A stretch of DNA of 64,000 nt from Gemmatimonadota bacterium (lineage in GTDB: Bacteria > Latescibacterota > UBA2968 > UBA8231), in contig JAYOYH010000005.1 in NCBI GenBank assembly GCA_038153405.1, positions 1-64,000 on the forward strand. The letters run 5' to 3'. Position 1 is the first letter of the stretch. The number at the start of each line of letters is the position of its first letter. A program made the position numbers and the translations under genes. Below the pieces are notes generated by a model that was not told where the DNA came from, did no database searches, and worked only from the letters and a program-made list of their open reading frames with translations. Shown one piece after another: positions 43,304 through 51,468 of this stretch.

Positions 43304-43457
43304 ACGGTACAGGCCCTCACCGCCCTATCTATCGCTCCTGAAAAGCCTACGGGGCGATATGGCGTCAGAAGCACTTCGAACAAAGAGCAAAAAATAATTT
43401 AACCGTGGAAAAATATGCCCTTGATTTTTTTTCGCATATTACTCACATTTCCACTCA

Positions 43458-43560
43458 GTCTTCGTTTCGAAAAGGCAAACTACGCGAAATCGTAGGACGC
43501 GAAGGAACGGGTCCTCATCTGGCCTCTGAGCCACCTAAGGACAGCCGCACTGTCGAAGGC
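43458..43560 (+). ncRNA. c-di-GMP-I (GEMM-I)-fold riboswitch aptamer, variant
   Basis: TTCG-AAAAGGCAAAC-TACGC-GAAA-TCGTAG-GACGC-GAAG...CGG-GTCCT...AGGAC-AG-CCG...TGTCGAA: P1, P2 with GAAA loop, P3 with AG bulge; upstream of fliG. Confidence 0.85.
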
Positions 43561-43609
43561 CCTAGTTCAGTGCGGTCTATTTAGATCACTCCTTCGCGCG
43601 AGCAGCAAA

Positions 43610-43645
43610 GGCCGCACTGGTATATTTTACTCGTGCGGTTTTTTT
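43610..43645 (+). terminator. Intrinsic terminator of the riboswitch expression platform
   Basis: GGCCGCAC (43610-17) / GTGCGGTT (43633-40) followed by TTTTT, just before the fliG ATG. Confidence 0.7.
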
Positions 43646-43652
43646 GTTGCCG

Positions 43653-44678
43653 ATGGCCTCCGATACAGCAGAAGTTAGCGAAGAACCCGAGATTCCCCTG
43701 CGCCAGCGCGTAGCCATTGTCATGGTTGCACTCGGCTCTGACGTGGCCGGGGAGGTAATGAAACACCTCTCCGATTACGAAGTCGAGGAAATAACCCAGT
43801 CTATAGCGGCTCTCAAGAGCGTTTCCGTCGAGGTGATGGACCGCGTTCTCGAGGATTTTGAACAGCACCTGCTGGCCGGCGAGTGGATCAGCCAAGGCGG
43901 TATCGACTTTGCGCGCAGCGCCCTCGAGCGCGCGATTGGCCCGCGCAAGGCCCAGGAAATAATCGACCGCATCAGCAGCCGCGTGTCCTCTGGGTTCTAC
44001 ATGCTGCGCAACGTCTCGGCCGAACAAATTGCCCCTTTTATAAGCCACGAACACCCGCAGACCATCGCCCTCATTCTGTCGCAGTTGGACTCTGCTCAAG
44101 CTTCGGGCATCCTCTCTCAGCTTCCCGAGCGCCTGCAGGCCGGCGTGGCCTACCGCATAGCCACGATGGAAAACATTACGCCCGCCGTCCTTAAGCAGAT
44201 CGAAGAAAGCTTGGAGACATCGCTGCGCGACGTGCTGGGCGGCAATCAGGACGTCGGCGGTCCCCGCGTCATAGCCGATATACTCAACCTGACTGGTTCC
44301 TCTGTCGAAAAAAACGTCCTCGATCAGATGGACGCCATGGACCCCGAAGTGGCAGAATCGGTGCGCAACTTGATGTTCGTCTTCGCCGACATCGTAAAGT
44401 TGACCGATCGAGAAATCCAGACGCTAATGCGCGAAGTAGATCAAAAGGACCTAGTTGTCGCGCTCAAGACGGCCAGCGAAGAGCTCAAGACCAAGATCCT
44501 CGGCAATATGTCCGAGCGCGTGCGAACCTATATCACCGAGGAGATGGATTTCCTCGGACCCATGCGCGTATCCGAAGTAGAAGAAGTCCAGCTGCGCATC
44601 GTGCAGCAGGTCCGCCAGTTGGAGGAGCAGGGACAAATTACCGTTGTCCGCGGCGACTCCGACGATCAATTCGTTTAA
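43653..44678 (+). CDS. fliG: Flagellar motor switch protein FliG homologue (solitary)
   Basis: GGIDFAR..L..A.G, EHPQTIALILS, VGG, MFVF.D, NMSER, GP.R.SEVE.VQ..IV..VR.LEE.G.I. Confidence 0.93.
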   Translation: MASDTAEVSEEPEIPLRQRVAIVMVALGSDVAGEVMKHLSDYEVEEITQSIAALKSVSVEVMDRVLEDFEQHLLAGEWISQGGIDFARSALERAIGPRKAQEIIDRISSRVSSGFYMLRNVSAEQIAPFISHEHPQTIALILSQLDSAQASGILSQLPERLQAGVAYRIATMENITPAVLKQIEESLETSLRDVLGGNQDVGGPRVIADILNLTGSSVEKNVLDQMDAMDPEVAESVRNLMFVFADIVKLTDREIQTLMREVDQKDLVVALKTASEELKTKILGNMSERVRTYITEEMDFLGPMRVSEVEEVQLRIVQQVRQLEEQGQITVVRGDSDDQFV

Positions 44679-44773
44679 CCCCAGCAAAGGACGTCCTATG
44701 TATAGTCATGGCGCAAACCAATGCAAATCCACACTTCAACTTTTCTACCTTGCCTACGGAGGTCGTTAGCTAG

Positions 44774-46048
44774 ATGATCGAACCCCGCTCGCCCAAGCTG
44801 CTCTTCGTCCATAGCGGTTCCCCGAAGAAGCGCCTGACCTTTGTCGCCGCCAACCAACTCGGTGCCCAGGTCCACTTATTGAACCCAGAAACCAACTGGG
44901 CCTCTTCTCTCGTCCAACAAACGCACTCCACAGCCGGACTCAGCATTCCCGAAGTCGTCGCGCTCGCCGAAGACGTCCACCGTCGCGAACAGTTCGACGG
45001 CGTCGTGACCTTCTGGGAAGAAGACGTGCCGACCTGTGCGCTGATTAGCGCCCGTCTCGGCCTCCCCGGCAATGCACCGCAGGCCGCTCTGGCCGCGCGC
45101 AGCAAGTACCGCATGCGGAAAGCCTTTCAGTTGGCCGGTTTGCCGGTGCCCAAATTCCGCCGTTTTTTCGATCGCACCTCGCTGCTCGAAGCCTGCGCCG
45201 CCGTCGGCACTCCAGCCGTACTCAAACCGGAATGGGGTTCCGATAGCGAATGGGTGCTGCGCGTCGAAACGCCACAGCAAGCCCTCGAGACCTTTGAATC
45301 CATTCGCAATGAAGTGCGCATTCAAGACTGCATTTACCGCTACCGGAGCGGAACCTACGTGCTCGAAAGTCTGCTGGTCGGACCGGAAGTCAGCGTCGAA
45401 GGCGTCGTGCAAAACGGACGGGTAACCATCTATGCCATCATCGATAAGGCCAAGATGGACGATGACAGCTTTGTCGAGCGCGGCGAAACCACCCCATCGC
45501 TCTTTCCCGAAGACGTGCAGGAGCGGATTCGCACCATGGTCTGCAACGGCGTTGCCGCGCTTGAATTGGACAATTGTGGCATCCACGCGGAGATAAAAAT
45601 CACCGCCGACGGACCGCGCATTATCGAAATTGGTGCGCGCATGGGCGGCGACTGCATTCACGCGCTCGTGCTGCGCGTCTACGGCATTGATCTGGCGGTG
45701 GAAAATATACGCGCCGCACTCGGACAGCCGGTCAGTCCGGCTACGCCCGCACTCGGCTACGGCATCTCGCGCACGCTCGTTCCGGAAAAACCGGGGCTCG
45801 TGCGCCTCGAGCACAGAGGCAAACCGCGCGCCAGTCGCAATCTGATCGAAGTGGTGCTCACCAAGGGGCCCGGCGACTGCGTGGCCGTGCCGCCGCACGG
45901 CTACGACAATCTAGCTTGGATCAGCGTATGGGGGCGCAGTTACCGCGAGGCTAGTCGCCGCATAGACGCGCAAGCTGCTCGTCTGCAAAGCGCGTTTACC
46001 ATTGAGGACCAGAAGCAGACGCTCTACCACACCGAGGCCGCCGGATGA
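44774..46048 (+). CDS. ATP-grasp ligase 1 (L-amino acid ligase-like)
   Basis: LGLPGN, RSKY.MR, VLKPEWGSDSEWV, GPEVSVEG, IHAEIK, IEIGARMGGD. Confidence 0.85.
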   Translation: MIEPRSPKLLFVHSGSPKKRLTFVAANQLGAQVHLLNPETNWASSLVQQTHSTAGLSIPEVVALAEDVHRREQFDGVVTFWEEDVPTCALISARLGLPGNAPQAALAARSKYRMRKAFQLAGLPVPKFRRFFDRTSLLEACAAVGTPAVLKPEWGSDSEWVLRVETPQQALETFESIRNEVRIQDCIYRYRSGTYVLESLLVGPEVSVEGVVQNGRVTIYAIIDKAKMDDDSFVERGETTPSLFPEDVQERIRTMVCNGVAALELDNCGIHAEIKITADGPRIIEIGARMGGDCIHALVLRVYGIDLAVENIRAALGQPVSPATPALGYGISRTLVPEKPGLVRLEHRGKPRASRNLIEVVLTKGPGDCVAVPPHGYDNLAWISVWGRSYREASRRIDAQAARLQSAFTIEDQKQTLYHTEAAG

Positions 46049-47364
46049 AGCACCTACTCTTCGTGCACACGGCGGGTGATGCGCAGCCCTATGTAGAGCG
46101 CCTGCGCGCATTGGGCTTTCGCGCCAGTCTCATAAAGCGGTGCCCAAGTGCGGGTGATAGAGCCTGTTTCGATGCGACATTTGACATCGACTACCAAGAA
46201 GATATGGGGGCAGCGCTGGCCTGTGCAGTGGACCTGCACCAGCGCGACCCCATTGACGGCGTGCTCAGCTTTTCGGAAAGCGGCGTGCTCGGAGCCAGCT
46301 TTATCGCCGAACACCTCGGCCTGCCAGCCAATGCTCCGAAAGCCGCGCTGCGCGCGCGCAACAAATACCTCATGCGCAAAGCGCTGCGCGACGCCGGGCT
46401 GCCAACGCCTGAGTTCCATCTGGTCGACAGCGCGCAGCAGGCTCTCTCCATACTGCAAGAGCGCGACCGCCCGATGGTGCTCAAGCCCATCAGCGGCTCA
46501 TCCAGCTACGGCGTCGTACGCCTGATGCCGGAGGACGCGTTGGAAACCATCGCCGCCCACTTTGACTCGGTGCGCACCTATATTGGCACCTACCGCGAGG
46601 AAAATCCCCAGTATCCGTTCGAGTTTTGGCTGCCCGAAGCTGGGCGCGGCATTGACCAGGCCGACGTATTCGACCCGCGAGTGCACCTGCTGCTGGAGGG
46701 TTTTATTCCCGGGCAGCAGGTGAGCGTAGACGGCATTGTCAGCGAGGGGGAAGTGAGCTGCTTTGGCGTTATCGAAATCGAGCGCATCAAAGACGAGGAC
46801 TACTTTCTCGAATACGAAGAATGGATGCCGACGCACCTCGGCACGGCGCGCGAAGAGGCCATCCAAGATGCCACCGCCAGCGCCGTGCGAGCACTGGGTC
46901 TGCGCAACAGTTGTTTTCACTGCGAACTAAAAATCGACGGCGACGACATCTGCGTGCTCGAAATTGCGGCGCGGCGCGGCGCCGACAATATTGCCGATTT
47001 CCTGCACTCGCTGCACGGCATTGATATCTACGCAGAAGGGGCGCACATTGCCAGTGGACAGCATAGGCACTACCCGCGTCGGCATCCGCACGGAGCGATG
47101 AAAATGCGCTACTTTCTACCGGATAAGTCGGGCGTCATTGCCCGCATCGATGGGATCGAGGACGTCCAAAGTGACCCGCGCCTGAGCGAGTTGTGCCTCG
47201 ATTTCTCTGTCGGTGAACGCGTATTAACTCCTCCTGACGGCTTTGAGTTCTTAGGCTATATGAGCGTGTGCGCCACCGACCTTTCCGGTGCAGACGCCGC
47301 GTTAGAGTCGCTGTACCCGCGCGTCGTATTTCATATCGACACCGATTCAATCCTATCATCCTAA
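46045..47364 (+). CDS. ATP-grasp ligase 2 (L-amino acid ligase-like)
   Basis: LGLPAN, RNKYLMR, VLKPISGSSSYGV, EGFIPG, FHCELK, LEIAARRGAD. Confidence 0.85.
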   Translation: MKHLLFVHTAGDAQPYVERLRALGFRASLIKRCPSAGDRACFDATFDIDYQEDMGAALACAVDLHQRDPIDGVLSFSESGVLGASFIAEHLGLPANAPKAALRARNKYLMRKALRDAGLPTPEFHLVDSAQQALSILQERDRPMVLKPISGSSSYGVVRLMPEDALETIAAHFDSVRTYIGTYREENPQYPFEFWLPEAGRGIDQADVFDPRVHLLLEGFIPGQQVSVDGIVSEGEVSCFGVIEIERIKDEDYFLEYEEWMPTHLGTAREEAIQDATASAVRALGLRNSCFHCELKIDGDDICVLEIAARRGADNIADFLHSLHGIDIYAEGAHIASGQHRHYPRRHPHGAMKMRYFLPDKSGVIARIDGIEDVQSDPRLSELCLDFSVGERVLTPPDGFEFLGYMSVCATDLSGADAALESLYPRVVFHIDTDSILSS

Positions 47365-47365
47365 A

Positions 47366-48628
47366 ATGGCCCATTTAAACGATCCATTGCTGGTGGTACA
47401 CCCAAGTCTGGACTATGCCAGAAGAGTGTGTAGCCACTTTCCCAACACCGTATTCATCGCGTTGCCCGCCCGTGCCAAAGAGCTGCGCATGGCGGGTTTC
47501 CGCGCGCTGGCCGCCGATCTGAACAACGGGCGTGCGGCACTGCGCAGCGCCGCCGACTACGCTCTGGCACAGCGCTTTCGCTACGCGGGTATCGCCTGCT
47601 TTGTCTGCGAATACCTGCCGCTAACCGCATTCGTCGCAGCCGGATTGGGCCTGCCACACGTCGAGGTGCAGACGGCCACACTCCTGCGCGACAAAGCGCG
47701 AAGCGGCGCGCGTTGGGCCCGTGCCGGCATACCCGTGCCCAACGCCCAACTCATCGACGACCTGAGCGAGTTAGAGGCCTTTGCATCGACCTGTCCGCCG
47801 CCTTGGATAGTAAAGCCTATAGACGCGACGGGCAGCGAATGGGTCTTGCGCATAGACGACCCGAGTCAGCTAGCCGAGGCCCACACGCGCCTTCAGCACG
47901 GCCTGCAGGGGTTACACCCTAGCGATCCGGCACCAGCCTATATAGCCCAGCGATTTATTCAGGGCCGCGAATTTGGCGTCGACTTTTTTATCGAAGGACA
48001 GCGCTTGCGCATTTTGCGCCTGTGCGAAAAGTTTCTCGTCGAAACGCCCGCACAGGCAGGCGTCGTTGGCGGCTATTACTTTCCACACCTACCACAGCGC
48101 CTGCGCCGTCAGTTGCAGGATACCCTGCGCCAGGCCGCGCGCGCGGTGGGGATGGCGCGCGGCATCGGCATGGCTGATCTCATCCTCTCTAACGATGTAT
48201 TTTACCTGCTGGAGATGGCGCCCCGTCCGGGCGGGGACTGCCTGCCCGACCTGTGCCGCGCCACCCTCAACTACGACCCCATACGCGCCGCCTGTGAAGC
48301 GGCTATCGGCGAGACTCCGCGCGCCGTTCACTGGCCTCATCCACTGCGCCCGCTGTGTGCGCTCCACCTGATGAGCGATCGCGAGGGGACCATACAGCAG
48401 ATCGACTTTTCTGCCCTGCGCGCCCACAGCAGCTTCTACAAATTCATCGAGGCCTACTGCGAACCAGGCGACGCCCTGCGCCAATGGGCTGGCAGCTACG
48501 AAGACCGCATTGTCGCTTCCTGCCTAGCCGATTGCCCCGATCCGAGCAGCCTGGCATCGCTGTGGAAAGAGCTGTCAGATGCCGTCCATATCACTTTTGC
48601 TAACAAACTGGAAACGGACCCATTATGA
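47366..48628 (+). CDS. ATP-grasp ligase 3 (divergent)
   Basis: LGLP, LRDK, IVKPIDATGSEWV, QRFIQGREF, LEMAPRPGGD. Confidence 0.8.
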   Translation: MAHLNDPLLVVHPSLDYARRVCSHFPNTVFIALPARAKELRMAGFRALAADLNNGRAALRSAADYALAQRFRYAGIACFVCEYLPLTAFVAAGLGLPHVEVQTATLLRDKARSGARWARAGIPVPNAQLIDDLSELEAFASTCPPPWIVKPIDATGSEWVLRIDDPSQLAEAHTRLQHGLQGLHPSDPAPAYIAQRFIQGREFGVDFFIEGQRLRILRLCEKFLVETPAQAGVVGGYYFPHLPQRLRRQLQDTLRQAARAVGMARGIGMADLILSNDVFYLLEMAPRPGGDCLPDLCRATLNYDPIRAACEAAIGETPRAVHWPHPLRPLCALHLMSDREGTIQQIDFSALRAHSSFYKFIEAYCEPGDALRQWAGSYEDRIVASCLADCPDPSSLASLWKELSDAVHITFANKLETDPL

Positions 48629-49989
48629 CTTCTTCTTCGCCCCCTCTCCGCGCCGGCCAGCTGCGCGCACTGGTCGACGAATGCCTCGAGCAGCGCGCGC
48701 AGTTTCTCGCCGCTAGCGAGGCATTCGGCACGCCGCAGTACTTAGTCGACCAGATGCGCATCGACGCGCAGGCCGCGCGCTTTCTACGCGCGTTTAGCCA
48801 CCCGCAGCAGCCCACGCGCACGCACTATGCGCTCAAATCCAACCCGTCTCTACCTGTCGTTCAGACGATTTGTCGAGCCGGACTGTGCGCCGACGCATCA
48901 TCCGGTCTCGAACTCGAGCTAGCGCTGCGCTGTGATTTCCCCCACATCGTTCTATCAGGTCCGGCCAAGAGCGACGGTGAACTCGGGCTAGCGCTCGACC
49001 ACGCGGATAGAGTCACGGTGCACTTGGACAGCTTTGCCGAGTTGAAGCGACTAGAGGCACTGGCCGCTCGGCGCCAAACCCCTATTCGCACCGGCATCCG
49101 AATCAATACGGAAGCGCACGGCAACTGGACAAAGTTCGGCATTCCCGCCGCCTCCCTAGGCGAGTTCACGGCGGCCGCCCGACAAATGGACTGGGTGCAG
49201 CTGCAGGGCATACAGTTTCATCTCAGCTGGAATCGCCAGGCCCGCGGCTACATCGAAACGCTGCGCGCGCTGGGTCCGCTGCTAGTTGCCCATCCGCCGA
49301 CAGACGGGTGGAAATTTGTCGATATAGGCGGCGGATTTTATCCCGAAGATGACGAGGCGGCCTATCCATGGCTAACCGATGACCAGCGCCTGCGCGCGCT
49401 CAGCGGTCAAGCAAACGCCGATGCACCGGCTGCCGATTGGGACTTGAGCTACTTGCTACACGCCGTGCAACCGATAGAGGACATGGCCAGCGAAGTATTT
49501 GCCGCCTTTGCCCAATTCGTCAGCTCGTCCATCGGTCCACTCGAGCTATGGCTGGAACCCGGTCGCTATATAGCGAACAAGGGCGTGCATATCCTGCTGC
49601 GGGTAGCCGATGTTAAAAGCGACGATATCGCCATCGCCGATGGGGGCACCAATTTGCTGGGCTGGGAGCGCTTGGAAAGCGAGCACTGCCCGCTGATTAA
49701 CCTTACCCACCCATCGACCCAGCAGCGGCGCTGCCGAGTCTACGGTTCGCTCTGCACGCCACACGATTTGTGGGGATATGCCTATTACGGGACGCACCTG
49801 GAGGTAGGCGATATCCTGCTATTACCGGCCCAGGGTTCCTATGTGCAAACGCTGGCACAGCGCTTTATAAAACCTGTCTGCCAAACCGTCTACTGGAGCA
49901 CTGATGGTCAATTGGAGCAGGTCGAAGCGGCCGAGAGATTAGAGGATCGCTATCCGGCTCTGCGCGACAGCGCACTGCACCCGGCCTAG
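48625..49989 (+). CDS. Fold-type III PLP-dependent decarboxylase (Orn/DAP/Arg family, CTPxD subtype)
   Basis: HYALKSN (PLP Lys), KFG, DIGGGF, EPGRY, DGG, YGSLCTPHD, GSY. Confidence 0.85.
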   Translation: MTSSSPPLRAGQLRALVDECLEQRAQFLAASEAFGTPQYLVDQMRIDAQAARFLRAFSHPQQPTRTHYALKSNPSLPVVQTICRAGLCADASSGLELELALRCDFPHIVLSGPAKSDGELGLALDHADRVTVHLDSFAELKRLEALAARRQTPIRTGIRINTEAHGNWTKFGIPAASLGEFTAAARQMDWVQLQGIQFHLSWNRQARGYIETLRALGPLLVAHPPTDGWKFVDIGGGFYPEDDEAAYPWLTDDQRLRALSGQANADAPAADWDLSYLLHAVQPIEDMASEVFAAFAQFVSSSIGPLELWLEPGRYIANKGVHILLRVADVKSDDIAIADGGTNLLGWERLESEHCPLINLTHPSTQQRRCRVYGSLCTPHDLWGYAYYGTHLEVGDILLLPAQGSYVQTLAQRFIKPVCQTVYWSTDGQLEQVEAAERLEDRYPALRDSALHPA

Positions 49990-50007
49990 CCGACCTACGC
50001 CCGCGCC

Positions 50008-51468
50008 GTGCAGATCGAACCACTGGACCAATTTATCGTAGCGCTCTACGCGCTGGCCATGCTCGGGGTCGGCTTTTATCTGCGCGGTAGGATATCGACC
50101 TTTGACCAGTTTAGCATGGCCGACCGCCAGCTGTCGGCACCGCTGCTCTTGTGCACGCTGGTATCTACCTACTATGGCCTCGGCGTCCTGCTGGCTGGCT
50201 CGGAAATCAGCTATGAAAGCGGCGTGGTCAACTTCTTTTTCGATACGGGACCGGCCTATATCGCCCTGATCGTAGCGGCGCTACTTTTGGCCCCGCGCCT
50301 GCAGGGCCGCTCCTTTCGCTCCATACCGGATATCGTGGGAGCGCGCTTTGGCCTCGGCGCCCAAATATGCGCCGCGCTCTCCTGCTTTATTTATGCGCTG
50401 CCCGCCTTTTCCATCATGGGCTTGGGCGGTCTGCTGCACCTGCTCTTCGGCTTGCCTTTTTACTGGGGTTTAGTGCTGGGCAGCGCCTTTGCTCTCACTT
50501 ATACGGCACTGGGCGGCCTGCTAGCCGTCGCGCTGACCGATGCTGCCCAGTTCGCCCTCATGGCGACGACGCTGGCCCTAGTCGCCTTTCTCGGGCTACC
50601 CGACCTAGGCGGAGTGGCAGCGCTCGAACAGGCGCTGCCAACGCACTTTGAACCATCTGGCGGACGTCCCATCGCCCTGCTCTTCGTCTACGGTCTCACC
50701 TCGCTGAGCATTCTCGTCGAGCCGGCCTTTTACCAGCGCATCTTCGCCGCGCGCGACCAGCGCACAATCGTCATGGCCATGCTCGTCGGCGTGGTATTTT
50801 GGATGTCGTACGACTGGATCGTCACCGTGCTGGGCATCGCCGCACGCGCGGCCGTGCTGGGTGGCTATATGCCCGAACCGCCGACGCCCGATCAGGCTGT
50901 TATACACTTTGCCATACGCGTATTGCCCAGCGGCCTCATAGGCATATTTGCCGCCGGCGTCGTCGCTGCCGCCATGTCGACCGTCGACAGCTATCTCCTC
51001 GTTTCTGCCAGCACGTTGGTCTACGACATCTGGCATCCGCTCGGCGGCAGGCACATGGACGATGCGCAACTCGTGCGGCGCACCCGCTGGACGATGTTAT
51101 TGACCACCGCTGCAACGATCCTGCTCTGCCTCTACTTCAGCAATGTCGAACGCCTGTGGATCTTTATCACCGCCGTGCTGATATGCACCAGTATGATTCC
51201 CGTGCTGAGCGCCCTGTTCTGGCCGAGCGTGCAGCGCCGCGCTGGATGCCTGGCAACCTATGTCGGCTTTTCTTCGGTGCTTGCATTCTACACCTGGATC
51301 GATCTATGCGGCCAATGGGTCGAAGAAGAAGCGACCTACATTTGGACGGGCGCAATTTTCGACCATTCGTGGACAATTAACCAAGACTACGGCATACTCT
51401 ATATCCTGCCGCTGGTCATTGTCGTCTTTGCCGTCTCCCACCTATTTCCCGAGCGCAGCGCATCGTGA
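50008..51468 (+). CDS. Sodium:solute symporter (SSS) family transporter
   Basis: About 13 TM helices; YTALGGLLAVALTD..QF, YQRIFAA, AAAMSTVDS. Confidence 0.9.
   Translation: MQIEPLDQFIVALYALAMLGVGFYLRGRISTFDQFSMADRQLSAPLLLCTLVSTYYGLGVLLAGSEISYESGVVNFFFDTGPAYIALIVAALLLAPRLQGRSFRSIPDIVGARFGLGAQICAALSCFIYALPAFSIMGLGGLLHLLFGLPFYWGLVLGSAFALTYTALGGLLAVALTDAAQFALMATTLALVAFLGLPDLGGVAALEQALPTHFEPSGGRPIALLFVYGLTSLSILVEPAFYQRIFAARDQRTIVMAMLVGVVFWMSYDWIVTVLGIAARAAVLGGYMPEPPTPDQAVIHFAIRVLPSGLIGIFAAGVVAAAMSTVDSYLLVSASTLVYDIWHPLGGRHMDDAQLVRRTRWTMLLTTAATILLCLYFSNVERLWIFITAVLICTSMIPVLSALFWPSVQRRAGCLATYVGFSSVLAFYTWIDLCGQWVEEEATYIWTGAIFDHSWTINQDYGILYILPLVIVVFAVSHLFPERSAS

Follow-up and report, generated by a model that had tools for sequence, protein, structure and literature searches.

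A c-di-GMP-I-fold riboswitch variant with G47, U92 and a relocated P1 helix ahead of fliG and an ATP-grasp ligase operon in Latescibacterota, with a possible change of ligand

The stretch of DNA analysed here (64,000 nucleotides, referred to below as the window) carries an aptamer with the c-di-GMP-I fold that is followed by a fliG gene, a small open reading frame (ORF), three ATP-grasp ligase genes, a decarboxylase gene and a symporter gene (Table 1). The fliG gene was recognised with 343.5 bits by TIGR00207 (cut-off 226.7) and is one of three close paralogues outside flagellar clusters, with singletons of 83% and 70% identity elsewhere in the genome. Its likely start (within 43644-43655) lies 7 nt past the U-tail of a predicted terminator, with no clear ribosome-binding site. 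FliG_C was matched eight times in the genome of the window (G000), on contigs C5, C69, C29, C43, C45, C3 and C59. At least four full-length fliG genes stand alone there, away from flagellar clusters, and the genome also has nine genes with a flagellin domain. The small ORF was present in the same frame in 15 of the 15 loci with upstream sequence (the window, L124-L131 and L133-L138), where it has 22-25 codons and its own ribosome-binding site, and ends in Tyr/Phe-Gly-Gly-X-stop with synonymous changes and all three stop codons in use. Its end overlaps the ribosome-binding site of the next gene, and it could be a leader for translational coupling or arrest, or a peptide substrate of the ligases. 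The NCBIfam matches of the ATP-grasp ligases were all under cut-off, the nearest named families being of the BacD and DdaF types, and close homologues of the operon proteins are nearly confined to this lineage.

Table 1. Features of the riboswitch locus in the window
Feature	Position	Strand	Basis and remarks
Probable sigma-70-type promoter	43421..43449	+	Inferred by eye; -35 at 43421-43426, 17-nt spacer, weak -10 at 43444-43449
c-di-GMP-I-fold aptamer, G20/G47/U92 variant	43458..43560	+	Covariance models RF01051 and RF03167; covariation over nine copies
Relocated P1, 5' strand	43458..43464	+	Pairs with 43554-43560; 9-nt junction before G20
G20 equivalent, kept as G	43474	+	Covariance-model column and sequence letter
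A47 equivalent, here G	43501	+	Covariance models; invariant in 9/9 G/G/U copies
C92 equivalent, here U (T in DNA)	43553	+	Covariance models; invariant in 9/9 copies
Relay helix 1 (predicted OFF)	43544..43577	+	ViennaRNA; 43544-43552 pairs with 43568-43577, destroying P3
Antiterminator (predicted)	43568..43619	+	43568-43577 pairs with 43610-43619, aptamer folded
Anti-aptamer segment (predicted OFF)	43590..43598	+	9 bp with the G47 junction
Intrinsic terminator hairpin with 7-U tail (predicted)	43608..43646	+	Folding
Full-length fliG paralogue outside flagellar cluster	43644..44678	+	TIGR00207; Pfam FliG_N/M/C; likely start ATG 43653
Conserved 23-codon small ORF, end Tyr-Gly-Gly-X-stop	44698..44769	+	Directly before first ATP-grasp gene
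Three ATP-grasp ligase genes, L-amino-acid-ligase type	44774-46048, 46045-47364, 47366-48628	+	Pfam
PLP-dependent decarboxylase, LysA/ornithine decarboxylase family	48625..49989	+	Profile matches
Sodium:solute symporter	50008..51468	+	Pfam SSF

The sole Rfam match above gathering score that cmscan returned for the window was RF01051 (c-di-GMP-I; 43464-43557, forward strand), with 45.7 bits against a gathering score of 35. The three-way junction, the GNRA-capped P2 and the two pairs above the pocket that characterise this class are all present, and the pocket columns aligned without gaps and with full posterior probability. A sequence-only reading of this DNA had placed the pocket by manual alignment to the Vibrio cholerae Vc2 aptamer, and the covariance model upheld its register: the G20 column holds a G, and alignments to both RF01051 and RF03167 give G at position 47 and U at position 92. 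Where a c-di-GMP-I aptamer has G20/A47/C92, the window aptamer therefore reads G/G/U, the shorthand used from here on for these three bases. RF03167 (c-di-GMP-I-GGC) was the better fit, with 53.7 bits under a gathering score of 59, and all nine G/G/U copies described below fell under this score (47.9-58.7 bits). As the RF03167 consensus already has G47, with C at 92, the A47G change alone is already catalogued. We know of no established ligand for c-di-GMP-I-GGC variants. The family is presumably that of Weinberg et al. (2017, PNAS), where such variants are said to be ones that might sense other signals. In the literature searched, G47 together with U92 is not described; Weinberg et al. may already list G/G/U. 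Rfam lists GGC and UAU variants of c-di-GMP-I (PMC12452182).

Sequencing error as the source of the variant bases was rejected, because the contigs of other runs carry the same letters and nine copies exist. Contigs of all four other runs covered 43501 and the C43485-U43490 mismatch with no differing letter, and those of three of the four covered 43553 unchanged; two of these four runs, whose tables were the same, may represent a single data set. The C-U mismatch, which the sequence-only reading had noted at the pair closing the GAAA loop, is real but confined to this species. Seven of the nine copies have a standard or wobble pair there, and the mismatch was dropped as a family feature.

Our searches covered 61, 168, 76 and 150 related genomes, together with a GTDB-wide exact scan and one metagenome scan, and yielded nine distinct G/G/U aptamers, seven of them in six genomes and two on metagenome contigs (L079 and L081); a third metagenome match was the same as the G002 copy. 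The six genomes (G000, which has two copies, and G001, G002, G027, G117 and G118) are among the 168 of the phylum that were searched and span three genera and two families, whose ATP-grasp proteins are just 56% identical. Named records with G/G/U aptamers or linked proteins were Candidatus Latescibacterota or Gemmatimonadota, and the runs holding the window were mostly marine or estuarine. Of the 56 matches from the GTDB-wide exact scan, made with an 18-nt sequence, 5 were aptamers and 51 were due to chance. A looser pattern for the phylum gave many non-aptamer matches in one genus and was dropped after inspection. All nine matches of a viral scan were chance matches, and blastn against plasmids gave three partial ones. 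A G47 pattern found one real aptamer in 401 genomes of a firmicute phylum, and none among its four matches in 251 Myxococcota genomes. The firmicute aptamer (L233:1457-1540, reverse strand) is G20/G47/A92, scored 64.5 bits, above the RF03167 cut-off, and is followed by two genes, one cheW-like (identified by eye) and one chemoreceptor-like.

The pocket is labile in the phylum, since several base combinations occurred among 44 matches to a model of the nine copies: 20 were G/A/C, 4 A/A/C, 1 A/A/U, 10 G/G/U and 2 G/G/C, while the other 7 were degenerate or misaligned. The 10 and the 2 each include one weak, poorly aligned match (L225, which reads G/G/U at 24.9 bits, and L227, G/G/C) that was not accepted as an aptamer of its kind, and one further G/G/C aptamer was confirmed outside this tally. 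G47 and U92 were both invariant in the nine copies, and other combinations were rare, with G47 beside C92 in two loci and beside A92 in one, and U92 beside A47 in one. Because the nine copies share derived features, one origin is indicated, and G47 with U92 counts once; judged from the sequences, their co-occurrence probably reflects one inherited lineage and no repeated covariation. The same phylum holds a natural A20/A47/U92 aptamer (L011:1496-1605, forward strand), with the bases that were engineered into Vc2 for c-di-AMP binding, before a long secreted-looking protein, in a host genome (86% complete) in which no diadenylate cyclase was found, and A20/A47/C92 (cGAMP-type) aptamers at L010, L019 and L082.

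In addition to the two pocket bases, the nine copies share a third change next to the pocket that was absent from the sequence-only reading, namely a relocated P1. This helix was found in all nine (6-9 bp, its 5' strand 9-14 nt upstream of G20), whereas none of the 16 A47 relatives examined had a helix of at least 6 bp at this spacing. Across the nine copies the distal register was 96.8% paired with two compensatory pairs, as opposed to 75% paired with no compensatory pair for the proximal P1 as aligned by Rfam (strand adjoining G20), which we set aside as the poorer register in both respects. At the end of the long junction between P1 and G20 stand an invariant G and then four A. Over the whole structure, 98.2% of 225 cells were paired and five pairs showed compensatory change, three of them in P2. 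In a shuffling control, which takes no account of relatedness, pairing and covariation scored above 500 of 500 shuffles. The junction and P3 bases next to G47 and U92 were invariant, as were these two.

We compared these data with the view that the RNA is a c-di-GMP-I riboswitch in decay that binds nothing. The private C-U mismatch in P2 and two mismatched pairs in lower P3 would fit such decay. So would the 8 of 16 genomes in which the operon is preceded by a decayed switch or by none that was detected. All nine copies have the same P3 mismatches, however, and decay is hard to reconcile with nine copies that keep the fold with compensation and with true remnants that look different: remnants before the same operon scored 23-32 bits as opposed to 104-119 for the nine copies, which built the model. 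We therefore regard decay as very unlikely. The earlier judgement that the RNA is not decaying is well supported by the compensatory pairs, by the working-looking terminators in all nine copies and by the different appearance of decayed ones.

Upstream of the window aptamer, a consensus promoter scan of the window did not call the candidate promoter of Table 1; a perfect -35 hexamer stands about as far upstream in several of the other G/G/U loci. Downstream, the complement of the aptamer 3' strand follows closely in all nine leaders, and in all nine a terminator that competes with the aptamer was predicted by folding, as expected of a transcriptional riboswitch. A consensus terminator scan, which allows only short loops, missed the window hairpin. 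From these folds we infer an ON-type terminator relay. Without ligand, the aptamer 3' strand would pair with 43568-43577 and the terminator would form (OFF); with ligand, the aptamer would keep its 3' strand, leaving 43568-43577 to capture the left arm of the terminator and permit read-through (ON). When the aptamer was constrained, the antiterminator formed in the minimum free energy structure of the transcript ending at 43622. With the aptamer folded, the terminator led the antiterminator by 3 kcal/mol at 43638 and by 8.5 at 43646 (-58.4 against -49.9 kcal/mol at equilibrium), and the predicted ON logic therefore needs kinetic trapping, since the terminator wins once its right arm has been made. 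In the leaders of G117 and G118 (L060 and L063), three terminator-like hairpins follow one another; those of G118 are built on repeats of the aptamer 3' strand. The folds suggest a domino relay that a single binding event might open. Contigs of RNA runs, which could stem from DNA, covered pieces of fliG and the operon and left the aptamer uncovered.

The platform pairings also bear on whether the old fold is kept as a scaffold for the terminator relay, in an attenuator that is ligand-independent or controlled by a protein. G47 lies in a 9-bp OFF-state helix in three same-genus copies (-16.8 kcal/mol for the duplex with the G47 junction), and U92 is paired in the first hairpin in four of the nine, so that platform pairing could constrain both bases. 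Yet in the other five copies the first hairpin leaves U92 unpaired, and six copies have a weaker G47 helix; both bases, and the unpaired pocket nucleotides too, are invariant although this pairing is not general. An attenuator of this kind is in our opinion very improbable.

A listing of downstream genes showed that the G/G/U copies share a small, distinct regulon. The first gene after the switch was fliG in four of the nine loci and a SAM-dependent methyltransferase in two, one of the latter being the second copy in the window's genome, which lies on another contig. Counted by member of the regulon, the loci are fliG 4, ATP-grasp operon 6 and methyltransferase 2. The switch stands directly before the operon in G117 and G118, and in G027 by a contig overlap read by eye. 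Orthologues of the first ATP-grasp ligase occurred in 16 of the 168 phylum genomes, and upstream of these 16 operon loci (44774-51468 in the window) we found an intact G/G/U switch in six, a decayed remnant in two, none detected in six and a contig end in two. Close orthologues of the methyltransferase were found in 4 of the 168 genomes, each of which belongs to the 16 operon-bearing ones, and two methyltransferase loci have just a 3' remnant of the switch, seen by eye and undetected by the covariance model. The genes behind canonical A47/C92 relatives are unrelated to this regulon and encode sensor propellers, a response regulator, an efflux pump and surface or secreted proteins; many of these genes have no Pfam match.

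We then considered which signal the hosts could provide. Published work indicates that G20 reads one guanine of c-di-GMP via its Hoogsteen face and C92 the other via Watson-Crick pairing (PMC5888326), that G20A gives cGAMP binding (PMC6140456), that an engineered Vc2 with G20A/C92U binds c-di-AMP (PMC7288161), and that Hypr enzymes carry a characteristic Ser (PMC6456294). At the corresponding site, nine residues after a conserved Asn, Asp was found in all nine intact GG(D/E)EF domains of the six host genomes, with four weak or fragmentary matches left out. SMODS was found in none of the six genomes and NF041117 in none of five; with these two cyclase profiles and genomes that are 84-98% complete, no cGAMP synthase of the Hypr GGDEF or DncV type was detected. 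Canonical diguanylate cyclases were present in all six; in G000 we counted a single intact one, along with three proteins of the HD-GYP type and two diadenylate cyclase domains. The suggestion of cGAMP as the ligand is weakened, because its synthase was not found in these incomplete genomes while c-di-GMP enzymes are present, and c-di-GMP is the signal more likely to be available. The usual diadenylate cyclase motif is Asp-Gly-Ala. A membrane diadenylate cyclase with Asp-Gln-Ala, and a second paralogue with Arg-His-Ala for Arg-His-Arg, were seen at L121, L239 and L241-L248; the Asp-Gln-Ala motif is family-wide and was rejected as a trait linked to G/G/U.

These enzymes are in line with a detuned c-di-GMP sensor, in which U92 would wobble with the second guanine, G47 would stack and the relocated P1 would offset the loss of affinity, with the operon on only at high c-di-GMP. 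The fliG target fits this as well, and so does the finding of a canonical switch in only one of the six G/G/U genomes (G027, where both kinds occur together). According to 10.1101/617340, C92U weakens the c-di-GMP response of Vc2 and does not abolish it, with partial rescue by high c-di-GMP in vivo. On the other hand, two damaging changes are combined in one pocket, and mutation of the conserved A47 is said to abolish c-di-GMP binding (PMC9049102, a simulation paper citing earlier work). Neither base has reverted in any of the nine intact orthologues before the same genes, and the regulon is unlike that of canonical relatives. Detuning is a possibility to be taken seriously, and one that we hold to be the less probable account.

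The reading that we prefer, with modest confidence, is that the conserved G/G/U variant is a ligand-activated antiterminator for fliG and the ATP-grasp operon that reads a purine nucleotide other than c-di-GMP. The different ligand proposed in the sequence-only reading is thus favoured over weakened c-di-GMP sensing, short of proof, and its A47G part is one that RF03167 had already catalogued. A changed ligand is supported by pocket bases that are invariant in all nine copies across two families while P1 and P2 pairs vary compensatorily, by the relocated P1 in nine of nine copies against none of the 16 A47 relatives, by the distinct regulon, by the presence of both G/G/U and canonical switches in G027, and by the terminator relay predicted for all nine leaders. 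Against it stand fliG as a typical c-di-GMP target, the genes for c-di-GMP synthesis and HD-GYP proteins, and the chemotaxis-like genes (cheW-like and chemoreceptor-like) behind the firmicute G47 variant. Under a changed ligand, G20 would go on recognising the Hoogsteen face of a guanine, and the second site would be rebuilt. By base-pair logic U92 would pair with adenine, which leads to a mixed G-A dinucleotide, for example 3',3'-cGAMP, oriented opposite to that in the Geobacter switches; we consider this doubtful. Somewhat less doubtful, but still tentative, is a new riboswitch class in which either the junction G or G47 would pair with U92 instead of the ligand's second base, so that G20 alone reads the signal. 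The relocated P1 would free the invariant junction guanine for such a self-filled second site, and the signal might be a nucleotide with a single guanine or else a second messenger not yet described. The firmicute switch, with its A92, shows that G47 variants do not all need a 47-92 pair. The ykkC PRPP/ppGpp switches, of unrelated fold, may offer a mechanistic precedent: in the PRPP switch an RNA guanine, G96, takes the place of the ligand base and switches specificity (PMC6031431).

Compared with known members of the class, the window aptamer has G20, G47 and the three-helix fold in common with c-di-GMP-I-GGC, but differs in having U92 instead of C, a lineage-specific P3 and a junction of 9-14 nt with relocated P1 in its family where c-di-GMP-I-GGC has about 5. 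With Vc2 it shares G20, the G21-C46 and C22-G45 pairs, the GAAA-capped P2 and a motility-gene target, whereas two of three ligand-contacting bases (contacts as given in PMC5888326) are changed and P1 is relocated. GEMM-Ib (Geobacter Gs1761) has the same fold and is a precedent for a pocket change that switches ligand (PMC6140456). GEMM-Ib has A20 and keeps A47 and C92, in contrast to the G/G/U variant, in which G20 is kept in all nine copies and the other two bases are changed; no Hypr GGDEF was found in the G/G/U hosts at the completeness given above. On sequence comparison, A47G alone is known, and the combination of G47 and U92 with a relocated P1 would be the new part. Altogether, the RNA is a real riboswitch variant under selection, probably of the ON type, with a remodelled pocket and a separate regulon.

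It was through the previous pocket change in this class, G20A, that cGAMP signalling came to light in Geobacter. In the G/G/U copies both remaining pocket bases are altered along with the P1 junction, and these changes are tied to a defined and unstudied regulon. A ligand hunt could draw on nine sequences from nature, on the ON read-out that is predicted and on decayed copies as natural controls. If c-di-GMP still binds, the variant shows how a natural aptamer tolerates the loss of A47 and bears on what the Rfam GGC variants sense. A new ligand would indicate either a novel signal or a known signal put to another use; a signal read through a self-filled site would, if true, link the supply of the flagellar switch to a peptide-ligase pathway in an uncultured marine lineage.
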